The translations under genes and the position numbers were made by a program. Below, in pieces: positions 1,467 through 38,633 of a stretch of 64,000 bases of DNA. The stretch is from Acidimicrobiales bacterium (lineage in GTDB: Bacteria; Actinomycetota; Acidimicrobiia; Acidimicrobiales; Acidimicrobilacustridaceae): positions 379,252 to 443,251 of the forward strand of contig JAWKIW010000002.1 in assembly GCA_041394145.1 (NCBI GenBank). Direction: 5' to 3'. Position 1 is the stretch's first letter, and every line of letters begins with the position of its first letter. The notes under the pieces were generated by a model. It did not search any database, was not told where the DNA came from, and saw only the letters and a program-made list of their open reading frames with translations.

Positions 1467-2699
1467 ATGTCCGACGTGTCGTTCCAGCTGAACGAGGACC
1501 AGCTCACCCTGCAGAAGTGGGTCCACGACTTCGGCGAAGAGGTCATCCGCCCGGTCGCGGCCGAGTGGGACGAGAAGGAGGAGTTCCCCTGGCCGGTGGT
1601 CGAGGAGGCGGCCAAGGTCGGCCTCTACGGCATGGACTTCATGGCTCAGATCATGATGAACGACCCGACCGGGCTCTCGATGCCGGTCGCCACCGAGGAG
1701 CTGTTCTGGGCCGACGCCGGCATCGGCCTGGCGATCATGGGCTCGGGCCTCGCCGCCGCCGGCATCCTCGGCAACGGCACCCCCGAGCAGATCATGGAGT
1801 GGGTCCCGCAGTGCTACGGCACCCCCGACGACGTGAAGCTCGGGGCGTTCTGCGTGTCCGAGCCCGACGCCGGCTCCGACGTGTCCTCGCTGCGCACCAA
1901 GGCCGTCTACGACGAGGCCAAGGACGAGTGGGTCCTCAACGGCACCAAGGCGTGGATCACCAACGGCGGCATCGCCGACGTCCACGTGGTGGTCGCGGCC
2001 GTCGACCCCGAGCTGAAGGGCCGCGGCCAGGCCAGCTTCGTGGTCCCGGCCAACACGCCCGGCCTGTCGCAGGGCCAGAAGTACTCCAAGCTCGGCATCC
2101 GGGCGTCGCACACCGCCGAGGTCGTGCTCGACGACGTGCGGGTGCCCGGCAGCTGCCTGCTCGGCGGCAAGGAGAAGCTCGACGAGAAGCTGGCCCGTGC
2201 CCGTGAGGCGCTGAACAACCCGGGCAAGGTGTCGAGCGGCAAGCAGCCGGCCATGGCCACCTTCGAGGCCACCCGCCCCGCCGTGGGCGCCCAGGCCATC
2301 GGCGTCGCCCGCGCCGCCTACGAGTACGCCCTGCAGTACGCCACCGAGCGCGTCGCCTTCGGCAAGCCGATCGTGATGCACCAGGGCGTGGGCTTCATGC
2401 TCGCCGACATGGCCACCGAGATCGACGCCGCCCGCCTGCTGGTGTGGCGGGCCGCGTGGATGTCGCGCAACAGCCAGTACAAGAACGCCGAGGGCTCGAT
2501 GTCCAAGCTCAAGGCCGGCCGCGTGGCCGTGTGGGTCACCGAGCGGGCCATCCAGATCCTGGGTGGCTACGGCTACGTCAAGGAGTACCCGGTCGAGCGC
2601 TGGCACCGCGACTCGAAGATCTACGACATCTTCGAGGGCACCGAGCAGATCCAGCAGCTGGTGATCGCCCGGGCCATCTCCGGCCTGCGCGTCGAGTAG
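1467..2699 (+). CDS. acyl-CoA dehydrogenase (FAD-dependent)
   Basis: 410-aa ORF with ACAD hallmarks: N-terminal helical domain, central beta domain, and the C-terminal YDIFEGTEQIQQLVIARAISG motif. The last 79 bp lie inside the attL direct repeat. Confidence 0.9.
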   Translation: MSDVSFQLNEDQLTLQKWVHDFGEEVIRPVAAEWDEKEEFPWPVVEEAAKVGLYGMDFMAQIMMNDPTGLSMPVATEELFWADAGIGLAIMGSGLAAAGILGNGTPEQIMEWVPQCYGTPDDVKLGAFCVSEPDAGSDVSSLRTKAVYDEAKDEWVLNGTKAWITNGGIADVHVVVAAVDPELKGRGQASFVVPANTPGLSQGQKYSKLGIRASHTAEVVLDDVRVPGSCLLGGKEKLDEKLARAREALNNPGKVSSGKQPAMATFEATRPAVGAQAIGVARAAYEYALQYATERVAFGKPIVMHQGVGFMLADMATEIDAARLLVWRAAWMSRNSQYKNAEGSMSKLKAGRVAVWVTERAIQILGGYGYVKEYPVERWHRDSKIYDIFEGTEQIQQLVIARAISGLRVE

Positions 2700-2778: not shown

Positions 2779-2799
2779 CATCCCTACTCCCATCCCTAC
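2779..2799. promoter_or_regulatory. tandem CATCCCTAC arm-type repeats adjacent to attL (putative integrase arm-binding sites / int promoter region)
   Basis: catccctac at 2779-2787 and 2791-2799, immediately inside the element and 22 bp upstream of the int ATG. A near-identical pair occurs at 34779-34798 next to attR. Confidence 0.5.
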
Positions 2800-2821
2800 T
2801 TTTCACGTAGGGTCTTCAGCC

Positions 2822-4330
2822 ATGGCAACGATCCGGCAGCGCAAGCGCGGTGTCTGGGAGGTCCGGGTGTTCGCCGGGCGCGACGCCCAGGGCAAGCCCG
2901 TCCAGGTCTCCCGTACGGTGCGCGGCGGCAAGAAGGATGCCGAGCGGGTGGCGAGCGAGCTCGAGCTCAAGCCGAGCCGGCCCGACGCCCGCCGGACCGT
3001 CGCCGAGCTCCTCGACGAGTGGCGCGCGCTCAAGGAGGCCAGCTGGGCCCCCTACACGCGCCGAGACCAGGAGAGCCGGTCGCGATCGATCGCCGCCGAT
3101 CGGATCGGGAAGGTCCCCGTCGCCCGGCTGCAGGTCACCGACGTCGATGCCTGGATCGTCCGCCTCCGCAAGGCCGGGGTCGGCGAGGGATCGATCCGCA
3201 ACCAGTTCCAGTCGCTGCGGTCGGCACTGGCCCAGGCGGTCCGTTGGGGGTGGATCGCACAGAACCCGGCCGCGCTGGCGAGCTATGAGCGAGCGAAGCG
3301 GACCTCGCGCGATGTGATGTCCGCCGAGGACGTCCAGGCCGTGCTCGAGGCCGCCGAGCAGGTCAACGAGATGGCGCCGGTCGCGATCCGACTCGCGGCG
3401 ATCACCGGTGCCCGCCGCGCCGAGCTCGCGGCGCTGCGGTGGACCGACCTCGACGGCTCCGTGCTCCGGGTCGACAGCGCCATCACGGTGGTCCGGGAAG
3501 GCTCGGGTGACGATCGGCGGACCGTCCTGCGTGACGATCCGACCAAGACCGCCGACCGTCGACGGGTCGCGCTCGACCCGTCGACCGTGGCCATGCTCGA
3601 AGTGCTGCGGGCCAGGCGTGAGCCCTACACACCGTGGATGTTCAGCGACACGGAGAAGGCTCCCCGCCCCGACCGGATCGGGTACTGGTGGCAGCGTTGC
3701 CGCGAGCTCGCCGGCATCGACGTCGAGTGGCGCCTGCACGACCTCCGCCACTGGTCGGCGACGTTCGCGCTCAGCGAGGGCTACGACGCCGCCACGGTCG
3801 CACATCGGCTTGGGCACTCGGACCCATCGACGACGCTGCGCGCCTACGCCCACGCCAGGGCGCAACGAGACGCCGACCTGGCGTCGAGCCTCGCCGATGC
3901 CTTGGAGATCCCCCCGAACCCGGGTAGCGCCCGCCACGGCGGCGAGGGCCTGTGGCCGGCCGGCGGGACCGATCCCGGGACCGACTGCGGGACCTCGTCC
4001 GACATCCGTTGGTCCGCCCGCGCCGACCGAGTGCCCTCCGGGTCTTGGAGCATGGCGACGCCCGAAAGGCCCGTTGACCTGGGAACGGGACCTTGCTCGG
4101 GACCGAGTACGGGAGTCCCGCCGAGGTCCCGTTGTCGACGCTGCCTGGTCCGCTCCGACGGCCGTCGGTTGAAGGAGATGCCCCGTTTCGGGACCGGAAG
4201 CGTGTCAGCTGCCACCTCACGGCCACGTGGCACGATCTCGAACCGGCGTTCGGCCCGTTGGCGAGACGGTGATCTGGGACACCTCGGCGGTGTGTTCGGA
4301 GACGGATTGCCGCGACCGGGCGGGCGGTAG
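2822..4330 (+). CDS. int: tyrosine integrase (phage-type, N-terminal AP2-like arm-binding domain); catalytic core ends ~3900, ORF reads on to 4330
   Basis: Starts MATIRQRKRGVWEVRVFAGRDAQGKP. The R...HDLRHWSATFALSEGYDAATVAHRLGHSDPSTTLRAYAH motif contains the catalytic Tyr. The C-terminal ~130 aa are a low-complexity GT[DG]-rich extension. Confidence 0.85.
   Translation: MATIRQRKRGVWEVRVFAGRDAQGKPVQVSRTVRGGKKDAERVASELELKPSRPDARRTVAELLDEWRALKEASWAPYTRRDQESRSRSIAADRIGKVPVARLQVTDVDAWIVRLRKAGVGEGSIRNQFQSLRSALAQAVRWGWIAQNPAALASYERAKRTSRDVMSAEDVQAVLEAAEQVNEMAPVAIRLAAITGARRAELAALRWTDLDGSVLRVDSAITVVREGSGDDRRTVLRDDPTKTADRRRVALDPSTVAMLEVLRARREPYTPWMFSDTEKAPRPDRIGYWWQRCRELAGIDVEWRLHDLRHWSATFALSEGYDAATVAHRLGHSDPSTTLRAYAHARAQRDADLASSLADALEIPPNPGSARHGGEGLWPAGGTDPGTDCGTSSDIRWSARADRVPSGSWSMATPERPVDLGTGPCSGPSTGVPPRSRCRRCLVRSDGRRLKEMPRFGTGSVSAATSRPRGTISNRRSARWRDGDLGHLGGVFGDGLPRPGGR
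3964..4207. repeat. cluster of >=7 CGGGACC/GGTCCCG heptamers in the integrase 3' extension
   Basis: cgggacc is seen at 3964, 3976, 3988, 4086, 4099 and 4199, with the inverted form ggtcccg at 4126. Confidence 0.35.
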
Positions 4331-10919: not shown

Positions 10920-12252
10920 CCGGGTCCGGGTGGAGCCAAGCCACGTTGGCCGACGCAGTGGAGCGCACGAACCTGTGGGTGACCGAGCTTCGGTGCCCCT
11001 CGTCAGGCGCTCGGCGGCCTGTCACCCGACCGCGCCACGGTTACCAGAGCCGTCGGGCTCAGCGGTCCGCCGTGGCCGCCGCCTTGGCCAATCTTCGCTG
11101 CGCGCCCGACACCCTGCAGCACCGACGACAAGGTGGCGGCCGCGAGGTGGTGGCCTGCCGCCGACGCTCTCGGCTTGCGCGCCTCGTGCTGGAGCTGGCC
11201 GGTGTGGTCGATCCCACCTGGCAGGCCCATGAGAGCGTCGCACCGCAGCCTCCGACCGCTGTGGATCGGGCACTGTGGCACCACGGCTGGCGATGTGCTG
11301 GCTCACTGGCCGTGGGCACCTCCTACGAGGACATCAGCCAGCATCGCCAGGGGGCTCTTTGTGTTCTCCCTTACCCAGGAATCGCCCGTGGCGACAGGTG
11401 AGCACTCCGGGCCGGTGTGGCTGCACCAGTCGCCGGACAGGTATGGCCCGCGGTAATCGGCGCGCCTCATCGGCCCCGACGGCGGACCGCGTCGACGCAC
11501 CGCCTCCGAGGCTGAGCGTGGCGCTCGTAGACATCGCCCGGGACCCGCCGGCCGGCTGCACCGACCTGGAGCAGGGTGCGGCGGTGAAGCCGTAATCTCG
11601 CTGCTGGTCGCCCTCAGACCTCGGCCTGCCCGTCGACGAGTGGTCCGACGAGATCGTGCGTTTCGCCGCCCGCTACGAAAGCAGGGCCGAAGCCGCCGAC
11701 CTCGTCGCCGTGCAGGTCGACCACCTCGGGCTGGCCGCCGACCTCATCGTCGTCGACATGGCCGCTAGGCGAGGAGATCGACCTCGCGATCCGGGGTACC
11801 GGCCCGTCGTGGCCGGCGCCGACACCGATCCGGTGCTCGCCCTGCTCGACGACCACGGCCACGACACCGCCACCACCCGTCCTGACCACCCTGTCGGCTG
11901 GGCGCGTCCTCGCGACTGGGTCTGGCGCTATGTCCTCGACGTCGCTGGTCAGGCCGTGCCCACCGCCACCGAATCGGTGCCCGACCGCTGGCTGCTCGAC
12001 ATCGCCGCCGCTCACCCGGCCGGCGAGCCGACCACAGCCCACTCCACTGACGTCCTCCGCCAGCTCGACGGGATGCGTGCCGGCGGCCTTCGACTTCGAG
12101 ACCGGTGTTGCGTCCCGGAGCGGAAGGGCGGAGGCAAGGCCTCTCGGCCGCCGGTGTGCGCTCCACCCAGGCCAACACCAGAGGCCCGCGACCTTGCCAG
12201 CAGGGCGACGCTGATGTCCTCTCCAGTCGAGCGAACCCCTGGGATTCGATGA
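10850..12252 (+). pseudogene. frameshifted paralog of the 9225 gene
   Basis: ORF 10688..11401 carries DRALWHHGWRC. ORF 11656..12252 carries EWSDEIVRFAARYESRAEAADLVAVQ...GWARPRDWVWRYVLDVAGQAVP. The pieces share order and spacing with the 9225 protein but lie in different frames. Confidence 0.5.
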
Positions 12253-12558: not shown

Positions 12559-14091
12559 ATGGCGAAGAGGTCGAAGGTGGAGTTGTACAGGCAGATCCGC
12601 AAGACCCGCGAGCGTGAGCAGCTCGGGATCCGGGCGTTGGCGCGCCGGTTCGGGGTTCATCGCCGCGCGATGTGCGCCAGGCGTTGGCGTCGGCGGTGCC
12701 GCCGCCGCGCAAGCCGTGCAGCGGGCGTCGCCGGTGCTGGATCGGTGGAAGCCGATCATCGATGGCTGGTTGGAGGCCGACCGGGCGGTGCCGAAGAAGC
12801 AGCGGCACACGGCCCGGCGGGTGTGGCAGCGGCTGGTCGCCGAGCACGGCGCCGAGATCGGCGAGTCGACCGGTGCGCCGCTTACGTGGCGGCGTGGAAG
12901 CCGGCAGCAAGGCGCTGGTGGAGGTGGCGGTGCCCCAGACCCATCCGCTGGGCGCGGAGGCCGAGGTGGACTTCGGGGCGGTCAGCTTCTATCTCGACGG
13001 GGTGCTGTGTGAGGGCCACATGTTCGTGATGCGCTTGTCGGCGTCGGCCAAGGGGTTCCATCAGGTGTATCCGAACGAGGCCCAGCAGGCGTTCCTCGAT
13101 GGCCATGTCCGGGCCTTCGCCCATTTCAGTGGGGTGCCGGGCCGGGTGCGCTATGACAACTTGAAGCCGGCGGTGGAGCGGGTGCTGCGGGGCCGGGACC
13201 GCGCCGAGTCCGAACGGTTCAGTGGCGCTCGCATTCGCCACTACAGGTTCCGACTCGATTGTTCTTCTGTCAGCCCGGCCCCGACGGCGCCCGCCCAGAA
13301 GGTGGCGTGGAAGGAGAGGTGGGCCGGTTCCGTCGCCGTCACCTGGTCCCGATGCCCAACGTCGCCTCGTTCGCCGAGCTCAACGACCTGATCGCGGCCG
13401 CCGACGCCGCCGATGACGCCCGCTGGGTGGCGGGTCGACGCCTCAGCGTCGGTGACCACTTCGCCCTGGAGGCCCCACGCTGGGGTGCCTGCCCGACGAG
13501 GCGTTCGACCCGGCGTTGATGCTGCGGCCCCGGGTGGACACGAAGTCCCGGGTGTGTGTGCGTCAGTGCTTCTACTCAGTGCCGGTGCGCTACGTCCGGG
13601 CGACGCATCGATGTGCGTCTGGGCGCCGACACGATCGAGGCGCTCGACGGGCCCCGGGTGGTGGCCACCCACCCCGGTTGTTGGCCAAAGGCACCGAGAG
13701 CTTGGTGCTGGACCACTACCTGGAGGTGCTACGGCTCAAGCCCGGGGCGCTGCCAGGCGCCACCGCGCTGGCTCGAGCCCGGGCGTCGGGCGCGTTCAGC
13801 GCCGACCACGAAGACGTATTGGTCCGCGGCCCGCCGACGCCTCAACGGCGCCGGCGCACCCAGGCCCTGATCGAGGTCCTGCTGGCCGCAGGCCCTGCCC
13901 GCCGACGCCGTGCGCGCCGGGATCCGAGCGGCGCTACGGATCCCGGTTCAGTCGACCCCGCCATCGTCGTCGTCGGTGCCCGACGAGCCCTCGAGGACCA
14001 CGACGCACGGTCGTGGCGATCGGTAATCGCCCGCTACGACCGCCCACCGCCGACGATCGCCCACTACGACCAGCTCCTGGAGGCCCGATGA
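12559..14091 (+). pseudogene. istA: IS21 transposase IstA (HTH + DDE), multiple frameshifts
   Basis: MAKRSKVELYRQIRKTREREQLGIRALARRFGVHRR is the N-terminal HTH. GHMFVMRLSASAKGFHQVYPNEAQQAFLDGHVRAFAHFSGVPGRVRYDNLKPAV is the catalytic core. C-terminal pieces (VCVRQCFYSVPVRY..., HYLEVLRLKPGALPGATAL) lie in other frames. Confidence 0.7.
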
Positions 14092-14862
14092 ACACCGACA
14101 CCGCCGCCGGTGCCACCGTCGACGCCGCAGCCCGCGAGCTGCGCCTACCGGCGGTGCGCGACCACACGCCACGACAGCCGCCGAAGCCAAACGGGCCCGC
14201 TCCACCCACCTGGGGTTCCTCGCCGACGTGCTCACCGTCGAGGTCGACGACCGAGCCGAACGACGACAGGCCCGGCGCATCCACGAGGCGCACTTCCCGC
14301 GCCTCAAACGCCTCGCCGACTTCCGACCTCGACGCCGCCCCCACCGTGGCCCCCACCGACCTCCCCGCCACCCTCGCCGCCGGCACCTTCCTCGACGTCG
14401 GCGAACCCGTCGTGTTGCTCGGCGACTCCGGCACCGGCAAGACCCACCTGCTCATCGGCACCGGCCTCGCCGCCTGCGAAGCCGGACGACGAGTCCACCG
14501 CCACCTGCGCACAACTCGTCAACGAACTCGTCGAAGCCGCCGACGAACGCCGCCTCGCCCGCCTCGTCGCCCGCTACGGCGCCGCCTCGACCTGCTGTGC
14601 GTCGACGAGCTCGGCTACGTCCAACTCGACAGCCGCGGCGCCGAGCTGTTGTTCCAAGTGCTCACCGAACGAGACGAACGAGCATCCGTGGCCGTCGCGT
14701 CCAACCTCCCCGTTCAGCGAATGGGGCCAGATCATCACCGACGCCCGCCTCGTCGCCGCCGTCATCGACCGGCTCACCTTCAACGCCCACATCATCGAAA
14801 CCGGCACCCGCTCTACCGTCTGCGCGCCAGCAGCCGCACCCGTCACCAACAAGACCGCCTGA
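14088..14862 (+). pseudogene. istB: IS21 helper ATPase IstB, frameshifted
   Basis: Starts MNTDTAAGATVDAAARELRLPAVRDH. Walker A VLLGDSGTGKTHLLIG. LDLLCVDELGYVQLD and DRLTFNAHIIETG lie in shifted frames. Confidence 0.65.
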
Positions 14863-15320
14863 ACGCCCCGAACATCCGCACCCGTCACCCACCCGACCCG
14901 ACCCGAGAGGCTCTACGGGCCACACAGCAGCCAGTTCCTCGGCTCGACGCCGACCGAAGGGGTGGGGCCAAATCAGACGAGCACGGTGGGGCCAATCCAG
15001 GTTGACATTCCCGGCAGAGCGCCGAAGGGGCCGATAGGCCCGGCTTCATAACCATCGGGGACACCGTCGAGGGTCGGAAATCGACACGGCGGCTCCGGCT
15101 GCCGATACTGCCTCTCGGTGGGGCGGCTCGTCGGCCCGGGAGGCTGTCATGGATGCCGGTACCGCCATGTCCCTGCGCTCGCGCTCAGTGAGCCTTTGCA
15201 CTGCTGATGATCCAGCGGAGGTAGCTGCCGCCGGGTTCCTGGCCCGCTACGGGACGGACCCTCAGTCGTATCATTCATGACCTGCGGGTCTTCCAGTGGG
15301 CGGCTGACGCTCGCATCGAC

Positions 15321-20607: not shown

Positions 20608-21651
20608 ATGAACCAGTTCCCGTGTTTGATCCGTTCGTCGTCGCCCGGTGGGGAGGCCCGCTTCGCCCTGGGTGATCCGCTCGTGGACGCCTACCTCGAG
20701 TTCGTCGCGGGCCGGGCCCGACCGAACACGTTGCGGGCGGTCGCCCATGACTTGAAGACGTTCTTCACGGTGATCGACAAGGCGCCCGCGGCGGTGGTCA
20801 CCGCCGATGTGTTCGACTTCCTCGCTGACCAACGTGGTGACCGCACCGTGATCCGTCTGTCTGATCGCGAGTCGGGGTTGTCGGCTCGCACGATCGCCCG
20901 GCGGTTGTCGTCGGTGTCGGGCTTGTACGCGTATCTGATCGCTCGGGGCGACACCGGCGTGGACACCAACCCGGTGCCGCGTGGCCTGTCGACCCGGCGG
21001 CGAGGCGGACGCACCCAGATCGTGCCCCTGGTGCGGGTGCCGCGCACCCTGCCCAAGATCTTGTCGCCCGCCGAGGTGAACGCACTGGTGGGTGCGCTGC
21101 GCACCCACCGGGACCGGGCGATGGTGTTCGCGATGGTGCTGGGAGGACTGCGCCGCTGCGAGGTCCTCGGTCTGCGCCTGGCCGACATCCGCGTGCCGGA
21201 CCGGTCGGTGTTCATCGCCGAAGGCAAGGGCGGCCACCAACGCATCGTGCCGATCAGCAACCCGTTCTTCGCGGCGGTCGGCCACTACCTGCGCTCGGAA
21301 CGACCCGCGGTGGACACCGACCGCGTCTTCGTCACCTTGAAGGGCCCCACCCGGGGGCACCCGATGACCCCCGACGGCATCGACAAGATCCTCCAGGCTG
21401 CCCGCCGACGCGGCGGGCTGGAACGGGCGACGTGTCACCAGCTGCGCCACACCTGCCTGACCCGCCTGCGCGAAGCCGGCATGGCCCTCGAAGCGGTCCA
21501 GGCCCAGGCCGGGCACGTCTCGATCGAGTCGACCCGGATCTACCTGCACCTCACCAACGACTGGCTCGCCAACGAATACCGGCGGGCCAGCGAACGCATC
21601 GACGCCGACCACACCGCCGAGCTCCTCGAGGCTCAGGAGATCAACCGATGA
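20608..21651 (+). CDS. tyrosine recombinase (XerC/D-like integrase), intact
   Basis: 347 aa. Catalytic-domain motifs present: LRRCEVLGLRLADI, HQLRHTCLTRLREAGMALEAVQAQAGHVSIESTRIYLH (the Y is the nucleophile). Confidence 0.85.
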   Translation: MNQFPCLIRSSSPGGEARFALGDPLVDAYLEFVAGRARPNTLRAVAHDLKTFFTVIDKAPAAVVTADVFDFLADQRGDRTVIRLSDRESGLSARTIARRLSSVSGLYAYLIARGDTGVDTNPVPRGLSTRRRGGRTQIVPLVRVPRTLPKILSPAEVNALVGALRTHRDRAMVFAMVLGGLRRCEVLGLRLADIRVPDRSVFIAEGKGGHQRIVPISNPFFAAVGHYLRSERPAVDTDRVFVTLKGPTRGHPMTPDGIDKILQAARRRGGLERATCHQLRHTCLTRLREAGMALEAVQAQAGHVSIESTRIYLHLTNDWLANEYRRASERIDADHTAELLEAQEINR

Positions 21652-22930
21652 CTGCCCTTGCTGCGGTCCCCGAACCTGCCACACCGAGCACCCAAGCCGA
21701 CCGCGACTGGGCCGAGCTGTCCGCCACTGCCCCCCAGCTGACCTCGACGATGCGCCGCTACCTGATCCAGCTCGGCACCTTCCTCGCGCCCCGCAGCGTC
21801 GACGTCGCCGACTCGACACTGCGCCCGTTCGCACGCTGGCTCACCACCACCACCGACGTCCGCGTCGTCGCTGGCATCGAACGCCACCACATCGAGGACT
21901 ACAAGGTGTGGCTCGCCGCCCGACCCGGCGCCCGCCCCGGCACCACCCTCGCCAAGAACACCCAACGCCAACGGCTGCGCACGATCCGGATCTTCCTCGA
22001 ACGCCTCATCGAATGGGACTGGCCCGACGCCCCCGGTCGGAACCCGATCCTGCACGGTGACATCCCACCGCGCCCCGAACCGCTCCCCAAGTTCCTCAAC
22101 GACCAAGACGCCGCCAAGTTCATGGCCGCCGCCCGCGCCCACCCCCTCCCGCGCTACCGCCTCGTCGCCGAAATGCTCGCCCGCACCGGCATGCGCGTCA
22201 GCGAGCTGTGCGACCTCACCGCCGATGCCGTCACCCGCATCGGTGACGCCCACTGGCTCCGCATCCCCGTCGGCAAGCTCCGCAACGACCGGTTCATCCC
22301 CCTGCACCCCGACCTCACCCTCGCCGACTGGACCGCCACCAACGCCAACCACATCCGCTCTACAACCGGCTCCTCGCCGACCACCACAAACCCTCGACCG
22401 GCGCACCGCCTACCGCATCGTCGCGGCCCGTCGGCCGCACCGCCGGCATCCACGTGCACCCCCACCAGCTCCGCCACACCCTCGCCACCCAAGCCATCAA
22501 CCGCGGCATGCGCCTCGAAGCCATCGCCGCGCTCCTCGGCCACCGCTCCCTGGAGATGACCCTCGTCTACGCCCGCATCGCCGACCGCGTCGTCGCCGAC
22601 GAATACGCCTCGGTCTGCCAACAGATCGACGCCCTCTACAACACCGCCGCCACCCCCAGCGCCCTGCCCGCCGACATCGAAACCGCCGCCATGACCCGAC
22701 TACGCGAACAAGCCCACGCCCGCATGCTCGGCAACGGACTCTGCACCCGCCCCGCCGAACTCGAATGCCGCATGGAAACCATCTGCGAGACCTGCGCCTA
22801 CTTCACCACCGGCCCCGAGTTCGTCCCCGTCCTCCTCCGCCAACGAGACCACGCCCGCCACCACCACCAACCCGACCGCGCCACCCTCTACGACCAGCTC
22901 CTCGACCAAGCCGCCAAGGACACCCCTTGA
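21648..22930 (+). CDS. second tyrosine recombinase, start overlaps upstream stop (ATGA); apparent frameshifts at ~22.35-22.44 kb
   Basis: ARTGMRVSELCDL, GKLRNDRFIPLHP, then RTAYRIVAA / GRTAGIHVHPHQLRHTLATQAINRGMRLEAIAALLGHRSLEMTLVYARI in other frames. Confidence 0.7.
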
Positions 22931-25832: not shown

Positions 25833-27014
25833 GTGGGGGCGGTGGCGCTCGACGACACATACGCGCCGGTGGACAGCGTCGATCGGGAGGCGGCACGCAC
25901 CGCGGTGAGGGACCTGACGGTTGCGATGATCGACCACTTCGTGGACGGTTCTGCCAACGTTGCGTGCTCGGGGCTGGGGCTGTGGAACGTCGTTGCGGTG
26001 CTGGCGTCGGGAGCCGACGGTGCGACCGCCGACGAGTTGGCGTCGCTGATCGGGGTGAGCGCGGACCGCGCCGCCGCCGCGGTAACGGGCCTCGACACCG
26101 ACGTGGACGCCGTCGACGGGGTGGCCCACGCTCTGGGGATGTGGAGCCAGGTGCCCACCTACCGGGCCTGGCGCGAGGAGCTGCCGACGATCGGGGTCGC
26201 CCACCTCGGCGACGACACCGACCTGGCCGCCTGGGTCGCCGACCACACCGGCGGCGCCATCCCCGGCTTCGACCTCACGATCCCATCCGACGCCCTGCTG
26301 GTGCTCGCCGACCTGATCCGGGTGAAGGTCACCTGGGCCGACGCCTTCCCCAAGGACAGCACCCGCCACCGGGCCTTCCGGGCTCCCGGCGGCGACGCGG
26401 ACGTGTCGACCATGACCAAGACCGACGCCACCGACTGCCTGGCGGTGGTGGGACGCACGCTCACCTACGACGTGCCCACCACCGCCGGAGAGGGCCCGGC
26501 GACGGTGATGCGCTTCGCCATCGGTGCCGCCGATGCCTCACCCGCCGAGGTCATCGGCGACATCATCGCCCCGCACCAGCGACGGCGACCCCTGTCGGCG
26601 TGCACCTGGTCGGACCTGCCCGACGACGCCACCACCGACAGCGATCTCCCGCCGGGCTCCTTCGGCCGGTTCACGGTGTTCCTCCCCAAGTTCGCCACGA
26701 CGACCAGCCTCGACCTGCTCAGCCTCCTCGACGTCCTCGGTGCTCGCCGCTGCCAGACCGACCAGGCTGGGTTCACGCGCATGTCCCCCGAGCCACTCAT
26801 GGTCGAGCAAGCGCTGCAGGACAGTGAGGTGAAGCTCGACGAGGCCGGCGTCGAGGCCACGGTCGTCACCCGCTCGTCCATGGTCACCACCGGTAGGTAC
26901 AAGAGTCCGGACCTCGAGGTCTTCTTCGACCGACCCTTCGGCTACGCCCTGGTCACCGAAGATACCGGCCTGCCCCTCTTCGCTGGTTGGGTCGCCGACC
27001 CCACCGTCACCTGA
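25833..27014 (+). CDS. serpin (serine protease inhibitor family)
   Basis: Hinge/RCL EAGVEATVVTRSSMVTTGRY and FDRPFGYALV, plus N-terminal FVDGSANVACSGLGLWNVVAVLASGADGATADELASL: serpin shutter and breach motifs. Confidence 0.75.
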   Translation: MGAVALDDTYAPVDSVDREAARTAVRDLTVAMIDHFVDGSANVACSGLGLWNVVAVLASGADGATADELASLIGVSADRAAAAVTGLDTDVDAVDGVAHALGMWSQVPTYRAWREELPTIGVAHLGDDTDLAAWVADHTGGAIPGFDLTIPSDALLVLADLIRVKVTWADAFPKDSTRHRAFRAPGGDADVSTMTKTDATDCLAVVGRTLTYDVPTTAGEGPATVMRFAIGAADASPAEVIGDIIAPHQRRRPLSACTWSDLPDDATTDSDLPPGSFGRFTVFLPKFATTTSLDLLSLLDVLGARRCQTDQAGFTRMSPEPLMVEQALQDSEVKLDEAGVEATVVTRSSMVTTGRYKSPDLEVFFDRPFGYALVTEDTGLPLFAGWVADPTVT

Positions 27015-27164: not shown

Positions 27165-28493
27165 TCAACCGGATGAGGTGTCGTCGTGGTCGCTCGGCCC
27201 GTTGCCGTGAGGGAGCTCGTCAACGACGGCGGGTCGAAGGTTGTTCTCCTTGATGAAGCGCAGTCGCTGTTGCGCTCGTTGTCGCGCCATGACGCGGTCT
27301 TGGCCGTGTTCGACGGCGGCAACCCCTGCAGAGAAGGTGACCGGCCGTCCCGCTATCAGGCGTCGATGGTGGTGGTCGTCGAGAAGAGCGCGCAGCCGCC
27401 GGGTGAGCTCGTGCTCGTCGAGGTTGGGGACAGCCACGACGAACTCGTCGCCGCCCCAGCGGCCGACCTGACCTTCGGGGTCGACGTCGCCCAGCAGGCG
27501 CGCCACGGTGCACAGGGCCTGGTCGCCGGCGTCGTAGTTGTCCGCCGTGGCGTTGAAGCCGCGCAGGTCGTCGAGATCGACGAACGCCACCGCGAACGGG
27601 ACAGGCAAAGCGTTGAGCGCCCGTTCGGTCCCGACGCGGTTCAACACGCCGGTGAGCCCATCGTGGTCGGCGCGTTCCTCCGCGTCGGACAGTCGACGCC
27701 TGAGATCCCGGATCTCGGCCTGCGTGCCCCGCACCGAGACCCCGGCGGTGGCTTCGAGGTGCTCGAGGCGCTGCACCAGCGGCACGAGGCGCTCCCAACG
27801 GGCGTCACTTCGGGCGGCCCACAAAGCGTTGGCATGGGTCGGTGACGGCCCCGCCCGCGGCGTGACCTGCAGCTCGATCGCCACGCAACGGTCCCCGAGG
27901 TCGACGTCGCCACCGCAACCGGCACGGATGCGGCGAGCCAACTGGGTGACGCCGTCGGCGGGCAGCCGGTCGACGAGCACGGCCAGCTCGCTGGGGCCCA
28001 CCCGACCGACGGTGACCGCGTCGGCGACGGTGGCATGCAGGCGGCGGGCCAGCTCGTCGAGGACACGGTCACCCACCTCGCGGCCCACATCCCGGTTGAG
28101 GTGGCGCAACCCGACCAGGTTCACCAGCGCCACCCCGTACGACAGCCGGGTCCCGGCCGATCGGGCCCGCCCGTCGACCTCGGCCAGCCGCTGGAGGAAC
28201 ACGACCTCGGAATCCCACGGCTCATCGCCCCGCGCCACTCCGACAGTATTGCCCTCGCTCCAAGCCCGCACCGAGGCGACCGACGAAGTGTCAACGGCTG
28301 CTCCCCGAACGCCGGCTATGTGCGCGACAACTACGGCGAGCTCCACGTCTGGTTCGCACGGTGGTGCGTCGTAGCTGTCCGAGACGTGAACCTGGCCCGG
28401 GACTCGGTGGCCTCGTGGTCCGTAGCGTTCCCGACGGCGACCTCCCTGACATCGCCGACTGCTGGCCGACGTGGCCGACCAGGCGCAACGCAC
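27165..28493 (-). CDS. diguanylate cyclase: degenerate N-terminal GGDEF-like domain + coiled coil + canonical GGDEF domain
   Basis: C-terminal domain DGLTGVLNRVGTERAL...VAFVDLDDLRGFNATADNYDAGDQAL...GRWGGDEFVVAV. N-terminal region SYGVALVNLVGLRHLNRDVGREVGDRVLDELARRL lacks GGDEF. GTG start 12 bp after upstream stop. Confidence 0.75.
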   Translation of the reverse strand: MRCAWSATSASSRRCQGGRRRERYGPRGHRVPGQVHVSDSYDAPPCEPDVELAVVVAHIAGVRGAAVDTSSVASVRAWSEGNTVGVARGDEPWDSEVVFLQRLAEVDGRARSAGTRLSYGVALVNLVGLRHLNRDVGREVGDRVLDELARRLHATVADAVTVGRVGPSELAVLVDRLPADGVTQLARRIRAGCGGDVDLGDRCVAIELQVTPRAGPSPTHANALWAARSDARWERLVPLVQRLEHLEATAGVSVRGTQAEIRDLRRRLSDAEERADHDGLTGVLNRVGTERALNALPVPFAVAFVDLDDLRGFNATADNYDAGDQALCTVARLLGDVDPEGQVGRWGGDEFVVAVPNLDEHELTRRLRALLDDHHHRRLIAGRPVTFSAGVAAVEHGQDRVMARQRAQQRLRFIKENNLRPAVVDELPHGNGPSDHDDTSSG

Positions 28494-31615: not shown

Positions 31616-34154
31616 GTGGAGGTTCGTGTCGTGTTGAACATCGGGAAGCTGGCGGCGGGCAAGGCCGGCTACTACGTGTCGCTGGCTGCTGGGGTCGAGG
31701 ACTACTACACTGACACGGCGAACCTCCGCCGAGCCCGACGGCGCCGAGCTGCTCGGCTTGGCCATTGCCGGCACCGTGACGGCCGACGATCTGGTCACGG
31801 TGCTGGGTGGGCGGGCGCCGGGGACTGGCGAGCGGCTGACGGGCTCGGGTGGCGGGGTTCGATCTGGACGTTCCGGGCGCCGAAGTCGGTGTCGTTGCTG
31901 TACGGGTTGGGCGAGGCCGACACGGTCGCCGGCGTGGTGGTCGATCGCGCGACGAGGCGGCTGTGGACGCCGCGGTCGGCTACCTCGAGCGGGCCGCCTG
32001 GTGCGACCCGCCGCCGGGTCGACGGGACGATCACCCGGTTCGCGGGGAGGGGTCTGCTGCGGCCGGGTTCGGCACCAGACGTCGCGGCGGGGACCCGACC
32101 CTGCACACCCACGTGCTGGTGGCGAACATGACCTGCACACCCGGCGGCCGGTGGGGGCGCTGGACGGGCGACGGGTCTACGAGCACGCCTTGATCGCCGG
32201 CTACTTCTACCAGGCCCAGCTGCGGGCCGAGCTGATCCGCCGCCTCGGCGTCGAGTGGGACTGCGGTCAACGGCTGTGCCGACGTCGCCGGTGTCGACGA
32301 CGGGGTGATCGCCGCGCCTTCCGGCGGCGCGCCGAGATCCTCGAACGTCTGACCAGCGCGGCCAGCGGTCGGCCCGGCGCAGGCGGCCACGCTCGACACC
32401 CGCCGCGCCAAGGACTACCGCCACGGCCGGGTCGACGCCACCGAGCTGCGGAGCCGCGGGCCGAACGCGGCGACCGGGTCGGGTTCGGACCGGCACAGGT
32501 GGCCGGGTTGTCGACGCCGGCGTCCGACGAACCCTCCTCCCTGGCCCAGGTCGGCGACATCTTCCGCGATCTGGCCGGCCCCGACGGGCTCACCAAGCAC
32601 AAGAGCACCTTCACCCGCCCCGACGTGCTGCGAGCGTTCGCGTCGGCGCTGCCCGACGGCGCCGACGTCGCCGCCATCGAAGACCTCGCCAGCTTCTACC
32701 TGTTCGCCACCGAACCGGTCGCAGTCGGTGACGTGCACGGCGCCGAGGCGTGGACGACCCAGGACCTCCTCGACACCGAACGACGGGTGCTCGCCGGCAT
32801 CGCCGCCCGCCGACACGCCGGCACCGGCATCGCCGACCGGGCCGAGGTGGCCGCCGCCATCGGTGCCCGGCCCACCATCGGTGACGAGCAGGCCGACATG
32901 GTCGCCGACCTGTGCCTGGCCGGACACGGCGTCGACGTCGTGGTGGGTGCCGCCGGCACCGGCAAGACCTTCGCCCTCGACACCGCCCGCGTCGCTTGGG
33001 AGCGCTCCGGGTACCGGGTCCACGGCGCCGCCCTGTCGGCGCGGGCCGCCGCCGAGCTGCAGGCCGGCTCGGGCATCGAGTCGACCACGATCGCCCGGCT
33101 GCTCGGCCAGATCGACGCCGGCCGGACCCGACTCGATACCCGGGCGGTCGTGGTCGTCGACGAAGCCGGCATGGTCGGCACCCGGACCCTGGACCGGCTC
33201 CACCAGGCGACCTCGGCCGCCGGCGCCAAGCTGGTGCTCGTCGGTGACCCCGCCCAGCTCCCCGAGATCGACGCCGGCGGCGCCTTCGCGGCGCTCACCG
33301 AACGCCTCGACCCGATCCGCCTCGTCGACAACCGCCGCCAGGTCCACCACTGGGAACGCGGCGCCCTCGACGACCTGCGCTCCGGCCGGATCGCCGCCGC
33401 CGTGGCCACCTACCAGCAACGGCAGCGCATCGTGGTCGTCGCCGACCCCGACGAGCTGCACACCCGCGTCGTCCAAGACTGGTTCGCCTCCCACCAGGCA
33501 GGGGACCAGGCGCTCATGGTCGCCGCGCACCGCGCCGAGGTCCGAGACCTCAACCAACGAGCACGCCAGCTGCTCGACGACGCCGGCCTCCTCGGCCCGA
33601 CCCGCCTACGGGTCGGCGGCCACGAGTTCGCCGAAGGCGACCGGGTCATGGCCGTCGGCCGCAACCACTACGACCTCGACATCCTCAACGGCGACCTCGG
33701 CACCATCACCGGCATCGGACCCAACGGCGACATCACCTTCCACGCCGACCGAACGGCCGAGCCACGCACGATGCCCGCCGCCCGCATCGAAGCAGGCTTC
33801 CTCGACCACGGCTACGCCCGCACCAACCACAAGACCCAAGGCGCTACGGTCGACCGCACCTTCATCCTCGGCGACGACGGCGACCTCGACCGCCAAGCCG
33901 CCTACGCCGCCCTGTCCCGGGGTCGCATCGAGAACCGCCTCTACGTGCCGGACCCCGACGACGACCTCCTCCTGGACACACCAGCTGCCTCCCCGATCCA
34001 CGAGCACGTCACCTACGAGCTGTCCCGCGACCGATCCCAACGCCTCGCCACCGACCACCTCGACGCCCAGGCCGGCCGCGCCGACGACCTGGACGCCCAC
34101 CTGCCCCACGCCCACCCCGATCCCGAACCCACCGTCGACAACGACCTCTGGTGA
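31616..34154 (+). CDS. MobF-family conjugative relaxase (TrwC/TraA N-terminal relaxase + RecD-like helicase); relaxase domain split over 3 frames
   Basis: MEVRVVLNIGKLAAGKAGYYVSLAAGVEDYY (YY/DYY motif), WTFRAPKSVSLLYG, DPTLHTHVLVANMT (HxH motif), WRALDGRRVYEHALIAGYFYQAQLRAEL, helicase motifs GAAGTGKTF, VVVDEAGMV, LVGDPAQLP. Confidence 0.85.
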
Positions 34155-34184: not shown

Positions 34185-34440
34185 TTGCGTCGGCGGGGCT
34201 GGTGGAGCCGCCTGGTACCGTGCCGGTGTGGCGCTGCGCCGAGACGACCTGACCCTGAGCAGCTGGAGCTCCAGCGGGCGCTGGATCGATCGTGGACCGA
34301 GGCCCAGCGGGGGCTCGCCGACCCGGAGTTCCGGGCCTACCTCGAGGACTCGATGCGCCGGCTCGATGCCAGGGAGCCGGCCCCGATGCTCACCCGCGAG
34401 GAGTTCCTGGCGCAGACCAGGATCCTCGACCAGCAGTGCC
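34185..34440 (+). CDS. putative antitoxin (ParD/Phd-like C-terminal motif); start/stop unclear
   Basis: ...ELQRALDRSWTEAQRGLADPEFRAYLEDSMRRLDAREPAPMLTREEFLAQTRIL. Duplicated outside the island at 35097-35313. Confidence 0.3.
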
Positions 34441-34448
34441 CCTCCGAG
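34232..34448. repeat. ~215-bp direct repeat, element-internal copy (antitoxin-like region)
   Basis: gaccctgagcagctggagctccagcgggcgctggatcgatcgtgg... about 92% identical to 35097-35313. Confidence 0.6.
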
Positions 34449-34711
34449 ACGTCGAGGAGTTCCACCGCTGGATCGAGCGGGAGTCCCTGTCGATCGCGGC
34501 CCAGCGAGTCGCCCGCCACTCTCGCCGAGGTCGGCGACGAGGCCTGGCGATCACCGAGTGTCCCGGTCGAAGCCCTTTCGAACCAACCGGAGTACGAAGT
34601 GCGCGAGAGGTCGCCCTTCCTGCCGAGGGCGACGACCGGCCGGTCCGGCTCTGGTACCGCCACATCTACGCCACGGACGCTGTCGATGTCATCGCCGTCA
34701 CCAACCGGTGA
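34437..34711 (+). CDS. putative ParE/RelE-superfamily toxin (GTG start overlapping antitoxin frame)
   Basis: VPLRDVEEFHRWIERESLSIAAQRVARH...RPVRLWYRHIYATDAVDVIAVTNR-stop has ParE-like motif spacing. Low confidence. Confidence 0.3.
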
Positions 34712-34778: not shown

Positions 34779-34798
34779 CATCCCTACTCCATCCCTAC
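34779..34798. promoter_or_regulatory. tandem CATCCCTAC arm-type repeats adjacent to attR
   Basis: catccctac at 34779-34787 and 34790-34798, 106 bp inside attR. Mirrors the attL-proximal pair. Confidence 0.5.
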
Positions 34799-34904
34799 AA
34801 CTGCACGACACAGGCCCACATCGGCTGGTACGGGCCGACACAAACCTCGGGAAAACCGCAGGTCAACGGCACAATCGCGCACTGGCTGGACAAGCAGGTC
34901 AGAC

Positions 34905-35058
34905 CTACGACATCTTCGAGGGCACCGAGCAGATCCAGCAGCTCGTGATCGCCCGGGCCATCTCCGGCCTGCGCGTCGAGTAGTCCTGACCTGCGCGTTC
35001 TTCTGTCAGAGGCCCGCTCACCGGAGCGGGCCTCTGGCGTTGTCGGACCCGGGATCGG
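34905..35058. repeat. attR: 154-bp direct repeat (copy 2), displaced ACAD 3' fragment + hairpin
   Basis: Encodes ...YDIFEGTEQIQQLVIARAISGLRVE-stop with no upstream gene body. Hairpin at 35008-35037. Confidence 0.8.
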
Positions 35059-35096
35059 TCCTGTCCCGCGGGCGCTCGGGTAGCGTGCGTGCGTGG

Positions 35097-35313
35097 CGCG
35101 GCGTCGAGACCGCTTGACCCTGAGCAGCTGGAGCCTCCGGCGGGCGCTGGATCGATCGTGGGCCGAGGCCCAGCGGGGCTCGCCGACCCGGAGCTCCGGG
35201 CCTACCTCGAGGACTCGATGCGCCGGCTCGATGCCAGGGGGCCGGCCCCGCTGGTCACCCGCGAGGAGCTCCTGGCGCAGACCGAGGTCCTCGACGGGTA
35301 GTGCCCCTCCGAG
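35097..35313. repeat. ~215-bp direct repeat, chromosomal copy just outside attR
   Basis: Same sequence with two compensating 1-bp indels. The antitoxin-like ORF ends with TAG here. Confidence 0.6.
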
Positions 35314-35443
35314 ACGTCGAGGAGCTCGGCCACATCATCAGGGACGGCGGTCCCGAGGACGTCGAACGCCTCCACCGAGCCGAGCGGCGGCCCCGCTGGA
35401 CCCGACCATCCTGCGTGTCACACGCCCTCGTCATGATGGGAGC

Positions 35444-37177
35444 ATGGTCGAGGGATCGGGGTTCTCCGACGTGTCGCTGGAGCTGGTCGGTGCCGTCGGG
35501 GGCATCGTCGGTGCAGCAGCCGTGGACCCGGCGTCGGCGTCCGACGAGGACCTGTGTGCGGCGATGGTGACGTTGGAGGGGGTGCGGCGGGCCGTCGACG
35601 CCCTGCAGGCGCGGGTGGTGGCCGAGGCCGACGCCCGCGACGTGTGCAACCTCGCCGACGGGCTGTCCACGGCGCGGTGGCTCGCCCGCGAAGCCGGCCT
35701 GGCCGGGGCGACGGCCAAGCAGCGGGTCAAGGTCGCCAACGTCCTGTGTCGCCACCTCGACGTCGTCCACCAGGCACTGGCCGACGGTCGCATCTCGTGG
35801 GACCACGCCCGGGTGCTGGCCGATCTGGTGAACCCCCGTGTCGTCGACCAGGTCGTCGCCCTGCAGGGCGAGCTGGTGGCGCTGGCGGAGCTGTGCGGGT
35901 TCGAGCGGTGGCGCCGCGAGGTCACCGCCGTCGTGGCCCGGTTGGACCACGACGGTGGCTACGACCCCGCCGCGGACCTGGCGCGGAACCGGCTGCGGGT
36001 CGGACCGGTGCTGGGCGGCGTCGCCGACGTGTCCGGCTCGTTGACCGGTGACCACGCCGTGCTCGCGGCGCACGCCATCGACACCGTCGCCGACGAGCTG
36101 TTCCACCGCTACCGCCGCGACCACGACCAGTGCCCCGACATCGAGGTGCCGTCGCGGGCGACCTTGCGGGCACTGGCCCTGGTCGAGCTGTGCCGCCGCG
36201 GCCTCGCCACCGACCCCCGCTCGTCCACGCCGCCGCGGCCCGAGATCGTGGTCGTCACGCCGGCGTCGGATCCCCTCGATGCCGATGCGCTCGCCGATGC
36301 GGCCACCCTCGACGGTGTGCCGTTGCCGGACGGCACGATGCGGCTGCTGGCCTGTGACGCTGCCTGGCGGGCGCTGATCGTGGACCACCTCGGCGTCCCG
36401 TTGGACCTGGGTCGCCGCGTCCGGTTCGCCACCCCCGACCAACGGCTGGCACTGGCCGTGCGCGACGGCGGCTGCGTCTTCCCCGGCTGTGACGCCCCAC
36501 CGTCGTGGTGCGACGCCCACCACCTCGACGAGTTCGTCCGCCACCGCGGCCACACCGATCTCGTTCGGCTCGCCCTGCTGTGCCGCCACCACCACGGCGT
36601 CACCCACCGCCGGGGCTGGACGATGCGGTCCACGGGCGACGGGTGGTTCCGGTGGCAGACGCCGACCGGCCGCACCCTCCACTCCCAACGCCACGGCCGC
36701 CGACGAGCCGGTGCCGATCCCCGGGGAGGCCGGCCACCACGAGCGCCACGCACCACCGACCACCTCGGGCCGCGCGAGATGGCCTGCACCTCCACCACCC
36801 TCTGTGCCACCGCTCCCATCACCGCCACGGTGCCCTCGAGTGGCGTGGCGACAGGTGCTCGTCGGGTCGCGACGCGCACCTGGTCGACTCCGGCGGTGCC
36901 GCCGCTCGTCGGCGTCAGGCGGGGTCGAGCACGAAGAGCGGGATCACCCGCTCGGTGGCCGCCTGGTAGCTGTCGTAGTCGGGCCAGACCGCAGTGGCGC
37001 GGGCCCACCACGTCGACTTCTCGTCGCCGTGCACCTCCCGAACCGTGTAGTCGCCGAGGACGTCGCCGTCCTGGAGCCGCGCGACGGCGTTGGCGCGGAC
37101 GTTGTGCACCCACTGCGGGTTGGTCGGCGCACCACCCATCGAGCCGACCACGGCGTAGCGGCCCTCGCCGTCGCTGA
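35444..37177 (+). CDS. DUF222 + HNH endonuclease protein (REP13E12-like); real C-terminus probably ~36.75 kb, ORF reads through to 37177
   Basis: MVEGSGFSDVSLELVGAVGGIVGAAAVDPASASDEDLCAAMVTLEGVRRAVDALQARVVAEAD. C-terminal HNH GGCVFPGCDAPPSWCDAHHLDEFVRHRGHTDLVRLALLCRHHHGVTHRRGW. Confidence 0.7.
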   Translation: MVEGSGFSDVSLELVGAVGGIVGAAAVDPASASDEDLCAAMVTLEGVRRAVDALQARVVAEADARDVCNLADGLSTARWLAREAGLAGATAKQRVKVANVLCRHLDVVHQALADGRISWDHARVLADLVNPRVVDQVVALQGELVALAELCGFERWRREVTAVVARLDHDGGYDPAADLARNRLRVGPVLGGVADVSGSLTGDHAVLAAHAIDTVADELFHRYRRDHDQCPDIEVPSRATLRALALVELCRRGLATDPRSSTPPRPEIVVVTPASDPLDADALADAATLDGVPLPDGTMRLLACDAAWRALIVDHLGVPLDLGRRVRFATPDQRLALAVRDGGCVFPGCDAPPSWCDAHHLDEFVRHRGHTDLVRLALLCRHHHGVTHRRGWTMRSTGDGWFRWQTPTGRTLHSQRHGRRRAGADPRGGRPPRAPRTTDHLGPREMACTSTTLCATAPITATVPSSGVATGARRVATRTWSTPAVPPLVGVRRGRARRAGSPARWPPGSCRSRARPQWRGPTTSTSRRRAPPEPCSRRGRRRPGAARRRWRGRCAPTAGWSAHHPSSRPRRSGPRRR

Positions 37178-38520: not shown

Positions 38521-38633
38521 CGTCCGAGCCGGAGCCCGAGCCCGGGCGAGGGTCGGGAGGCGGGGGCGCGGCGGGGCGTTGTTCCCTACTCGGCGCCCCC
38601 TCGTCGTCGCACCATCGGGCTAGGAGCAAGGCG

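Follow-up and report, generated by a model that had tools for sequence, protein, structure and literature searches.

Paired direct repeats at the ends of an Acidimicrobiia integrative element as probable arm-type sites of its tyrosine integrase

Introduction

Heterobivalent integrases are defined by accessory arm-type sites. The integrase (Int) of phage lambda binds such sites, which are distant from the core, with its N-terminal domain and core-type sites, with a 7-bp overlap, with its C-terminal domains, and the bridging between the two builds the intasome (PMC4880445). The systems closest to the one described here come from mycobacteriophages. In the attP of the Cluster K1 phage CrimD two pairs of 11-bp repeats flank the core, in phages L5 and Giles the paired arm-type sites are in direct orientation, and among Cluster K1 phages position 7 of the arm site (T or G) tracks residues 17 and 19 at the N-terminus of Int (PMC3203893). 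Arm-type sites can also serve in regulation: the KplE1 integrase IntS was shown experimentally to repress its own promoter through P' sites lying over it, and RDFs are able to repress int as well, as the KplE1 RDF TorI does (PMC2951348).

Here we analyze a 32-kb insert within a 64-kb stretch of DNA (the whole of which is called the window below), where four copies of the 9-mer CATCCCTAC lie in two pairs, one inside each end of the insert. Like the mycobacteriophage systems (L5, Giles, Cluster K1), the locus combines an actinobacterial tyrosine integrase, in all likelihood heterobivalent, with paired arm repeats of ~10-11 bp. It differs from them in the integrase family (27-30% identity to phage integrases), in the motif CATCCCTAC and in the host class, Acidimicrobiia. 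Moreover its target is a protein-coding gene and not a tRNA or tmRNA gene, and the element is a 32-kb island with a relaxase and not a phage.

Results

The integrated element and its integrase

The insert lies between two direct repeats, the left of which takes in the final ~80 bp of an acyl-CoA dehydrogenase gene whose translation ends in ...DSKIYDIFEGTEQIQQLVIARAISGLRVE* (Table 1). A repeat search aligned the two att segments over 158 nt with 95% identity, and their uninterrupted identity starts at 2621 and 34905, respectively. No third att copy, which would be a sign of a tandem element, was found in the 64-kb window. The gene content indicates that the insert is a mosaic integrative island of nested mobile elements and not a prophage; it is probably mobilizable. 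Among the small ORFs near int no Pfam or PHROG family pointed to an excisionase/RDF, and no bending-protein or excisionase sites were identified.

Table 1 Coordinates of the features in and around the integrated element.
Feature	Position	Strand	Remarks
Target gene, acyl-CoA dehydrogenase	1467..2699	+	Pfam Acyl-CoA_dh_1/M/N, E 4e-49 to 5e-18
Candidate core, attL	2612..2636	+	9-bp inverted repeat around 7-bp spacer; junctions in relatives
attL identity segment	2617..2774	+	3' end of acyl-CoA dehydrogenase gene and hairpin 2723-2752 (self inverted match)
Probable arm-type site P'1 (CATCCCTAC)	2779..2787	+	43 to 35 nt 5' of int start codon; position conserved in relatives
Probable arm-type site P'2 (CATCCCTAC)	2791..2799	+	12 bp after P'1; conserved in relatives
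GTAGGGT with -10-like TANNNT box (TAGGGT, 2808-2813)	2807..2813	+	8 nt before ATG; inverted partial motif copy (GTAGGG)
int, tyrosine integrase	2822..4330	+	Functional part 2822-~3925; Pfam Phage_integrase 165-348, E 5.6e-18
Putative arm-binding domain, int codons 1-50	2822..2971	+	AF2 model; residue-20 covariation
IS21 IstB	13413-15005		Inside element
Two Xer-like tyrosine recombinase genes	20608-21651, 22247-22930		Inside element; one apparently truncated
Serpin	25833-27014		Inside element
GGDEF protein	27165-28493	-	Inside element
TrwC/AAA_30 relaxase-helicase	31758-34154		Inside element
Probable arm-type site P1 (CATCCCTAC)	34779..34787	+	Homologous P-arm pairs in other elements
Probable arm-type site P2 (CATCCCTAC)	34790..34798	+	11 bp after P1, 106 bp before crossover point
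Candidate core, attR	34896..34920	+	Element-derived left half-site ...GGTCAGAC (to 34904), CTACGAC (34905-34911), ATCTTCGAG (34912-34920)
attR identity segment	34901..35058	+	Displaced original 3' end of target gene

The integrase belongs to a family of 1192 proteins at E <= 1e-10, with more than 400 genomic matches in one scan. Besides its catalytic domain, Pfam detects a weak central/SAM-like domain (Phage_int_M/SAM-like) at residues 62-151, and an alignment of 40 family members shows R198, K242, H306, R309, H332 and Y342 to be invariant. The relatives are ~363-370 aa long, with P0001 (368 aa) ending in IPPNPG*. The int ORF of the window encodes 502 aa, as 134 additional G/R/P-rich codons (3920-4330) follow the position of the relatives' stop; where these end after ...IPPNPG, the window reads ...ccg ggt agc..., with its TAG out of frame. 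This read-through is a 1-nt indel or an assembly error, and it leaves the catalytic domain unaffected.

Beyond the right end of the element, a 248-bp segment of its interior (34214-34459) is repeated at 35079-35324 with 91% identity, 20 bp outside attR. The inside copy encodes a ParD-like antitoxin, behind which a ParE-like toxin ORF without a Pfam match extends to 34711, and the outside copy is frameshifted and truncated. The latter may be what is left of an earlier element of this family that stood in tandem; a third att core is absent from the window. Immediately to the right of attR and of this antitoxin remnant lies a DUF222 gene (35441-37177; Pfam DUF222, E 1.5e-20), which we take to be of the REP13E12 type. 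Its C-terminus looks HNH-like by eye (...HHLDEF...HHH...) and gave no Pfam HNH match.

Paired copies of the motif in the window and in relatives

All four copies of CATCCCTAC lie on the plus strand and there are no others in the 64-kb window, where 0.24 would be expected; none of 100 dinucleotide-preserving shuffles of the window reached four. At each copy the full repeat unit is the 10-mer CCATCCCTAC. The start-to-start spacing is 12 bp in the left pair and 11 bp in the right pair. The left pair begins 4 bp past the end of the att repeat and 43 bp before the int ATG (2822), and the right pair ends 106 bp before the uninterrupted att identity starts at 34905; the coordinates and distances of the original prediction (2779-2799, 34779-34798 and 106 bp inside attR) thus proved correct on recount. 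Copies of CCATCCCTAC with one or two mismatches occur in the window at chance level (56 versus 45 expected), and a search for additional CCCTA/TAGGG near the att sites returned only the inverted GTAGGG at 2807. A single TTCCCTAC at 38582, considered as a further arm site, is isolated and probably due to chance.

For comparison we assembled 80 genomic loci whose integrases are 50-79% identical to that of the window. They come from Acidimicrobiia or related actinobacterial MAGs and from Actinospongicola halichondriae. We inspected the 90 bp upstream of int in each of them, and 79 could be scored for the pair. Two perfect TCCCTA hexamers precede int in 74 of these 79 loci, with a period of 12 bp in 44 loci, 11 bp in 21, 10 bp in six, 13 bp in two and 9 bp in one. 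The tandem sites, which in nearly all 80 loci have the general form (N)ATCCCTA(C/G), have their first hexamer 65 to 30 nt 5' of the int start codon, and the DNA surrounding them cannot be aligned between clades. As a negative control we searched 588 kb of chromosomal flank upstream of the int genes of the 80 loci, which contains no pair; 20 are found in 471 kb on the element side. Single TCCCTA hexamers number 21 in the 588 kb of flank against ~190 expected from base composition. Because the hexamer is this rare, the arm motif is intrinsically distinctive in these genomes. The motif had been predicted to be rare in the genome and kept in homologous elements, and both hold: the 588 kb of flank are free of pairs and homologous elements have retained them.

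The counts of 21 and ~190 amount to a ~9-fold depletion of the hexamer (TCCCTA/TAGGGA) in the chromosomal flanks relative to base composition. The loci without a clean pair are five: L035, L041, L046, L055 and L054, the last being too short. L046 has two copies of ATCCCAAC ~40 nt before the int start, together with changes at integrase residues 26 and 28 (HVSH, not KPVQ). The T20 clade (L035, L041 and L055) shows an inverted-plus-direct arrangement (TAGGGAT..ATCCCTAAG) and not a tandem pair. One further clade (L018, L020, L024, L029, L034, L045, L061, L066 and L074) carries a full third copy in inverted orientation, GTAGGGATG, which occupies the stretch from ~40 to 25 nt ahead of the int start codon and so separates the pair from the -10-like box. 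Of this inverted copy the window retains only a partial GTAGGG (2807-2812), fused with the TANNNT box.

Attachment sites and arm geometry

Within flanks of up to 10 kb, a second same-strand pair was found downstream of int in 12 loci and is followed by an att direct repeat in 11 of them, so that a repeated motif distinct from the core is present on both attP arms of the window element and of 11 further elements. We aligned 16 attL/attR junctions from nine loci, including the tandem arrays of L069 and L079. In all 16 junctions the attL/attR identity begins directly after host ...GAAGAT, the element side reading ...AGAC or GGAC. The host sequence at this point is the inverted repeat GAAGAT-N7-ATCTTC, which encodes K-I-(Y/H/M/T)-(D/T/Q)-I-(F/Y)-E of the acyl-CoA dehydrogenase, and every junction places the crossover point at these "K-I-x-x-I-F-E" codons. 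A literature search, of incomplete coverage, found no paper on an att site in acyl-CoA dehydrogenase genes.

In the window the attL core is a perfect 9-bp inverted repeat, CTCGAAGAT (2612-2620) and ATCTTCGAG (2628-2636), around CTACGAC (2621-2627). By comparison with the aligned junctions, the recombination core proper is most likely these ~25 bp at the left edge of the identity segment; CTACGAC would be the 7-bp overlap region of a B-O-B' core and the half-sites its core-type sites. The 154-bp segment that had originally been called the core is the shared identity segment, made up of the 3' end of the target gene and a hairpin.

The start of the P pair lies 114-138 bp before the crossover edge, and 124-126 bp before it in 11 of the 16 junctions. 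On the other side, the P' pair comes 115-194 bp after the crossover point, since the end of the gene, with any sequence following it, has to be accommodated on the P' arm. When 17 P arms were aligned, the two TCCCTA blocks were the only invariant columns besides the core. The proposal that P and P' arms flank the core is hence upheld, on one side by the pairs next to int in 74 of 79 loci and on the other by a second pair at a near-constant distance in 16 of 16 far junctions. Both pairs are kept even in the minimal element of L047, whose ~2.8 kb hold int together with a glyoxalase-like gene and an unknown ORF; Pfam recognizes no DNA-binding protein in it besides Int.

Two loci (L069, 12481-19300, and L079, 18796-20720) have several units of [arm pair, ~126 bp, att core] arrayed in tandem behind a single int. 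The distance between some of these units, only ~0.9-1 kb, is too short for an integrase gene. The arrays look like an accretion, at one acyl-CoA dehydrogenase site, of remnants that lack int and may be mobilizable in cis. In L039 a motif pair on the minus strand (11349-11372) is located ~280 bp past the end of int, where an att repeat was not found; it may be an arm belonging to a neighbour in the opposite orientation, or the product of a rearrangement.

The N-terminal domain of the integrase

Residues 1-50 of the integrase precede the Phage_int_M/SAM-like region and are highly conserved among the 40 aligned sequences. An AF2 model of this part, built from 19 sequences, predicts strands at residues 2-8, 11-20 and 26-34 and a helix at residues 37-49, with a pLDDT of 82-90 over residues 1-50, and places Arg20 in a conserved G-R-D turn at the end of strand 2. 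Such a beta-beta-beta-alpha order is the topology of arm-binding domains, and the predicted domain may resemble the N-domains of the lambda and Tn916 integrases and AP2/ERF domains, in which a three-stranded antiparallel sheet is packed on one helix.

Direct searches with this region returned no family. Pfam gave none for residues 1-67 even at E = 10, PF14657 was precomputed in 0 of 120 homologues among the matches listed, a profile of 19 N-domains against PDB sequences produced only spurious matches (E > 0.6) and Foldseek found nothing below E = 0.4. By tblastn against phages, many phage integrases align from residue 2-7 onward at 27-30% identity. In one of them, the integrase of Bacillus phage vB_BtS_BMBtp16, Pfam recognizes Arm-DNA-bind_4 (PF14657) at residues 11-55 (E 1.8e-18). 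The window integrase is collinear with this protein from residue 7 by BLASTP (E 3e-28), with the GRD motif in register, and its N-domain falls onto residues 11-55. With the N-domains alone the link is moderate (hhalign, 48% probability, E 1.8e-4, 44% identity over 39 columns). The window protein shares with PF14657 integrases such as that of BMBtp16 the N-domain motifs R-KR..W...GRD..GK....KK(D/E)AER and, in the model, the beta3-alpha topology, whereas neither it nor its 39 aligned relatives match the Pfam model. The domain is probably a divergent relative of PF14657, although the Pfam model itself is not reached, and would act like an arm-binding domain. Of the description of the integrase as AP2-type in the original prediction, the predicted beta3-alpha fold and the moderate link to a PF14657 member speak in favour, but no match in Pfam or in the structure database backs it.

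Covariation between integrase residue 20 and the last base of the sites

Across the loci the sites occur mainly as ...CCCTAC and ...CCCTAG. Integrases with Arg or Lys at residue 20 go with C at both sites in 51 of 51 loci, and those with Asn, Tyr, Thr or Ser go with G or A in 23 of 24, the exception being L057, which combines S20 with TAC sites (Fisher p = 2e-18, uncorrected for phylogeny). To place the changes we used a neighbour-joining tree of integrase residues 61-345 only. Parsimony required eight changes of the residue class, seven of the base class and eight of the joint character, which puts the residue and base switches on shared branches; in all, the switch has recurred about seven times across the tree. 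For example, N20 with TAG sites in L027 and L073 is nested among relatives with R20 and TAC sites (L028, L030, L043 and L044). Of the ~348 alignment columns residue 20 has the highest normalized mutual information with the site class (0.95); the next-best column reaches 0.51, which is the level given by shared ancestry. Further variants, each confined to a single clade and representing one event, point the same way: GTCCCTAG sites occur with V11Y and Y20, TTCCCTAG sites with a Lys in strand 3 and ATCCCAAC sites with the changes at residues 26 and 28. The idea that the motif is recognized by the N-domain of the integrase thus gains indirect backing, since residue 20 of this domain changes together with the terminal base of the site.

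The same covariation bears on whether the sites could instead be bound by another protein of the element, an excisionase/RDF or a repressor controlling int transcription and excision. RDF sites are often short direct repeats in the att arms and RDFs can repress int (PMC2951348); moreover, most small ORFs near int lack a recognizable family, and a DNA-binding protein may have gone unrecognized among them. Yet it is residue 20 in the integrase N-domain that the site variant tracks, far better than it does other integrase columns. The pairs stand on both arms, at distances like those of arm sites, whereas RDF sites normally occupy one arm, and elements of ~2.8 kb keep both pairs with int as the only gene that Pfam recognizes as DNA-binding. 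We consider it very unlikely that such a protein, and not the N-domain of the integrase, binds the sites.

The left pair and the predicted int promoter

In actinobacteria the -10 consensus is TANNNT. Such a box is present in 75 of the 80 loci, against a chance of 0.56% per locus. Its start is 16 to 11 nt and its end 6-9 nt ahead of the int start codon, a geometry that fits a leaderless int mRNA. In 67 of 69 loci 2-21 nt separate the end of the second site from the box downstream, which puts this site in the spacer/-35 zone. The overlap of the left pair with the int promoter, as had been suggested, is in this way borne out at the sequence level by a conserved box. A scan for E. coli-type sigma70 promoters around both pairs gave nothing, which is expected at ~70% G+C, and a scan for intrinsic terminators around both pairs gave none. 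Because site 2 lies in the spacer/-35 zone, Int at P' would be in a position to block RNA polymerase, in the manner demonstrated for KplE1 IntS (PMC2951348), and on this analysis we lean slightly towards autoregulation of the int promoter by Int. The distance between sites and box ranges from 2 to 33 nt across the loci, and therefore promoter occlusion need not hold for every element.

As most loci have a conserved -10-like box 2-21 nt downstream of the left pair, this pair could also be no more than an element of the int promoter itself (a -35/UP-like element or the site of a host transcription factor), with the right pair playing a similar part for another gene and neither being recombinational. 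The right pair, however, is followed by no TANNNT box or gene start, which rules it out as a duplicate of the promoter. It is fixed at ~125 bp from the crossover and not from any gene, and if a host factor were the ligand, the sites would not follow integrase residue 20 from element to element. A role confined to promoters is very unlikely on these grounds. That the copies arose by chance or by a recent functionless local duplication is hardly credible: the window itself has only four short copies, but no shuffle in 100 reaches four, the 588 kb of flank hold no pair, and position and orientation are kept across integrases only 50% identical within unalignable DNA.

Discussion

The comparison of 80 loci leads us to conclude that the four CATCCCTAC copies are very probably the arm-type sites of the element's heterobivalent tyrosine integrase. 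We propose the following working model. It builds on the observed sites, their conservation throughout the family, their geometry and the covariation of protein and DNA; the physical binding, the arm-core bridging, the exact cleavage positions and the autoregulation in it are inferred. In the excised circle (attP) the tandem pair P1-P2 would lie ~125 bp to one side of the crossover and the tandem pair P'1-P'2 ~158 bp to the other, with all four sites in direct orientation and one helical turn between the two members of a pair. The N-domain of the integrase (residues 1-50) would dock on the CATCCCTAC sites, with Arg20 reading the terminal C:G pair, and the core-binding and catalytic domains of the same Int molecules would act at GAAGAT-N7-ATCTTC in the K-I-Y-D-I-F-E codons. 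Such arm-to-core bridging would build an intasome for integration and excision of the element. The target gene would stay intact because the element brings a spare copy of its 3' end. After integration the P' pair would be placed just upstream of the int -10 box, where bound Int should repress its own promoter.

The catalytic domain of the window integrase is related by sequence to that of lambda Int (1z1b, E 2.5e-9), whereas the searches returned nothing that matched the lambda N-domain in sequence or fold. In contrast to the five arm-type sites of lambda (P1, P2 and P'1-P'3), the window has four in two tandem pairs, and no IHF, Xis or Fis sites were identified. The identity segment is also as long as 154-158 bp here because it carries the end of the target gene. 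As in KplE1, int is directed away from attL and has P' arm-type sites lying across its promoter; unlike in KplE1, the case for the window comes from the geometry of the sequence (TANNNT box, leaderless start and sites in the spacer/-35 zone). The covariation of residues 17 and 19 with position 7 in Cluster K1 matches that of residue 20 with the last base in the present family, where, in contrast to the mycobacteriophages, it recurs about seven times independently. Judged by these features, what we describe is the same phenomenon as the mycobacteriophage arm sites, in a different integrase family, host class and target. The mechanism is accordingly not new, as arm-type sites, direct pairs, covariation of site and N-domain and promoter overlap all have precedents.

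What the analysis adds is a complete att layout for a large element family of uncultured lineages, with its arm motif, spacing, candidate core and overlap, and target gene. It provides a signature by which islands can be delimited in Acidimicrobiia, namely (C/T)ATCCCTA(C/G) twice before int and, ~125 bp ahead of a duplicate of the acyl-CoA dehydrogenase 'IFEGT' codons, another such pair. The switch of residue 20 and the last base is in turn a specific, testable prediction of how such arm-binding domains read DNA. It is a tentative suggestion, which we regard as rather doubtful, that these elements form an undescribed and widespread Acidimicrobiia family that uses one universally conserved target in acyl-CoA dehydrogenase genes (the K-I-Y-D-I-F-E-G-T codons) and has repeatedly switched its arm specificity by one residue and one base (Arg20 with C versus Asn, Tyr, Thr or Ser20 with G). 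If true, this would be a natural minimal recognition code for re-engineering arm specificity. Elements with a common core site would then have mutually orthogonal intasomes, and this orthogonality could permit tandem arrays such as those of L069 and L079 without cross-excision.
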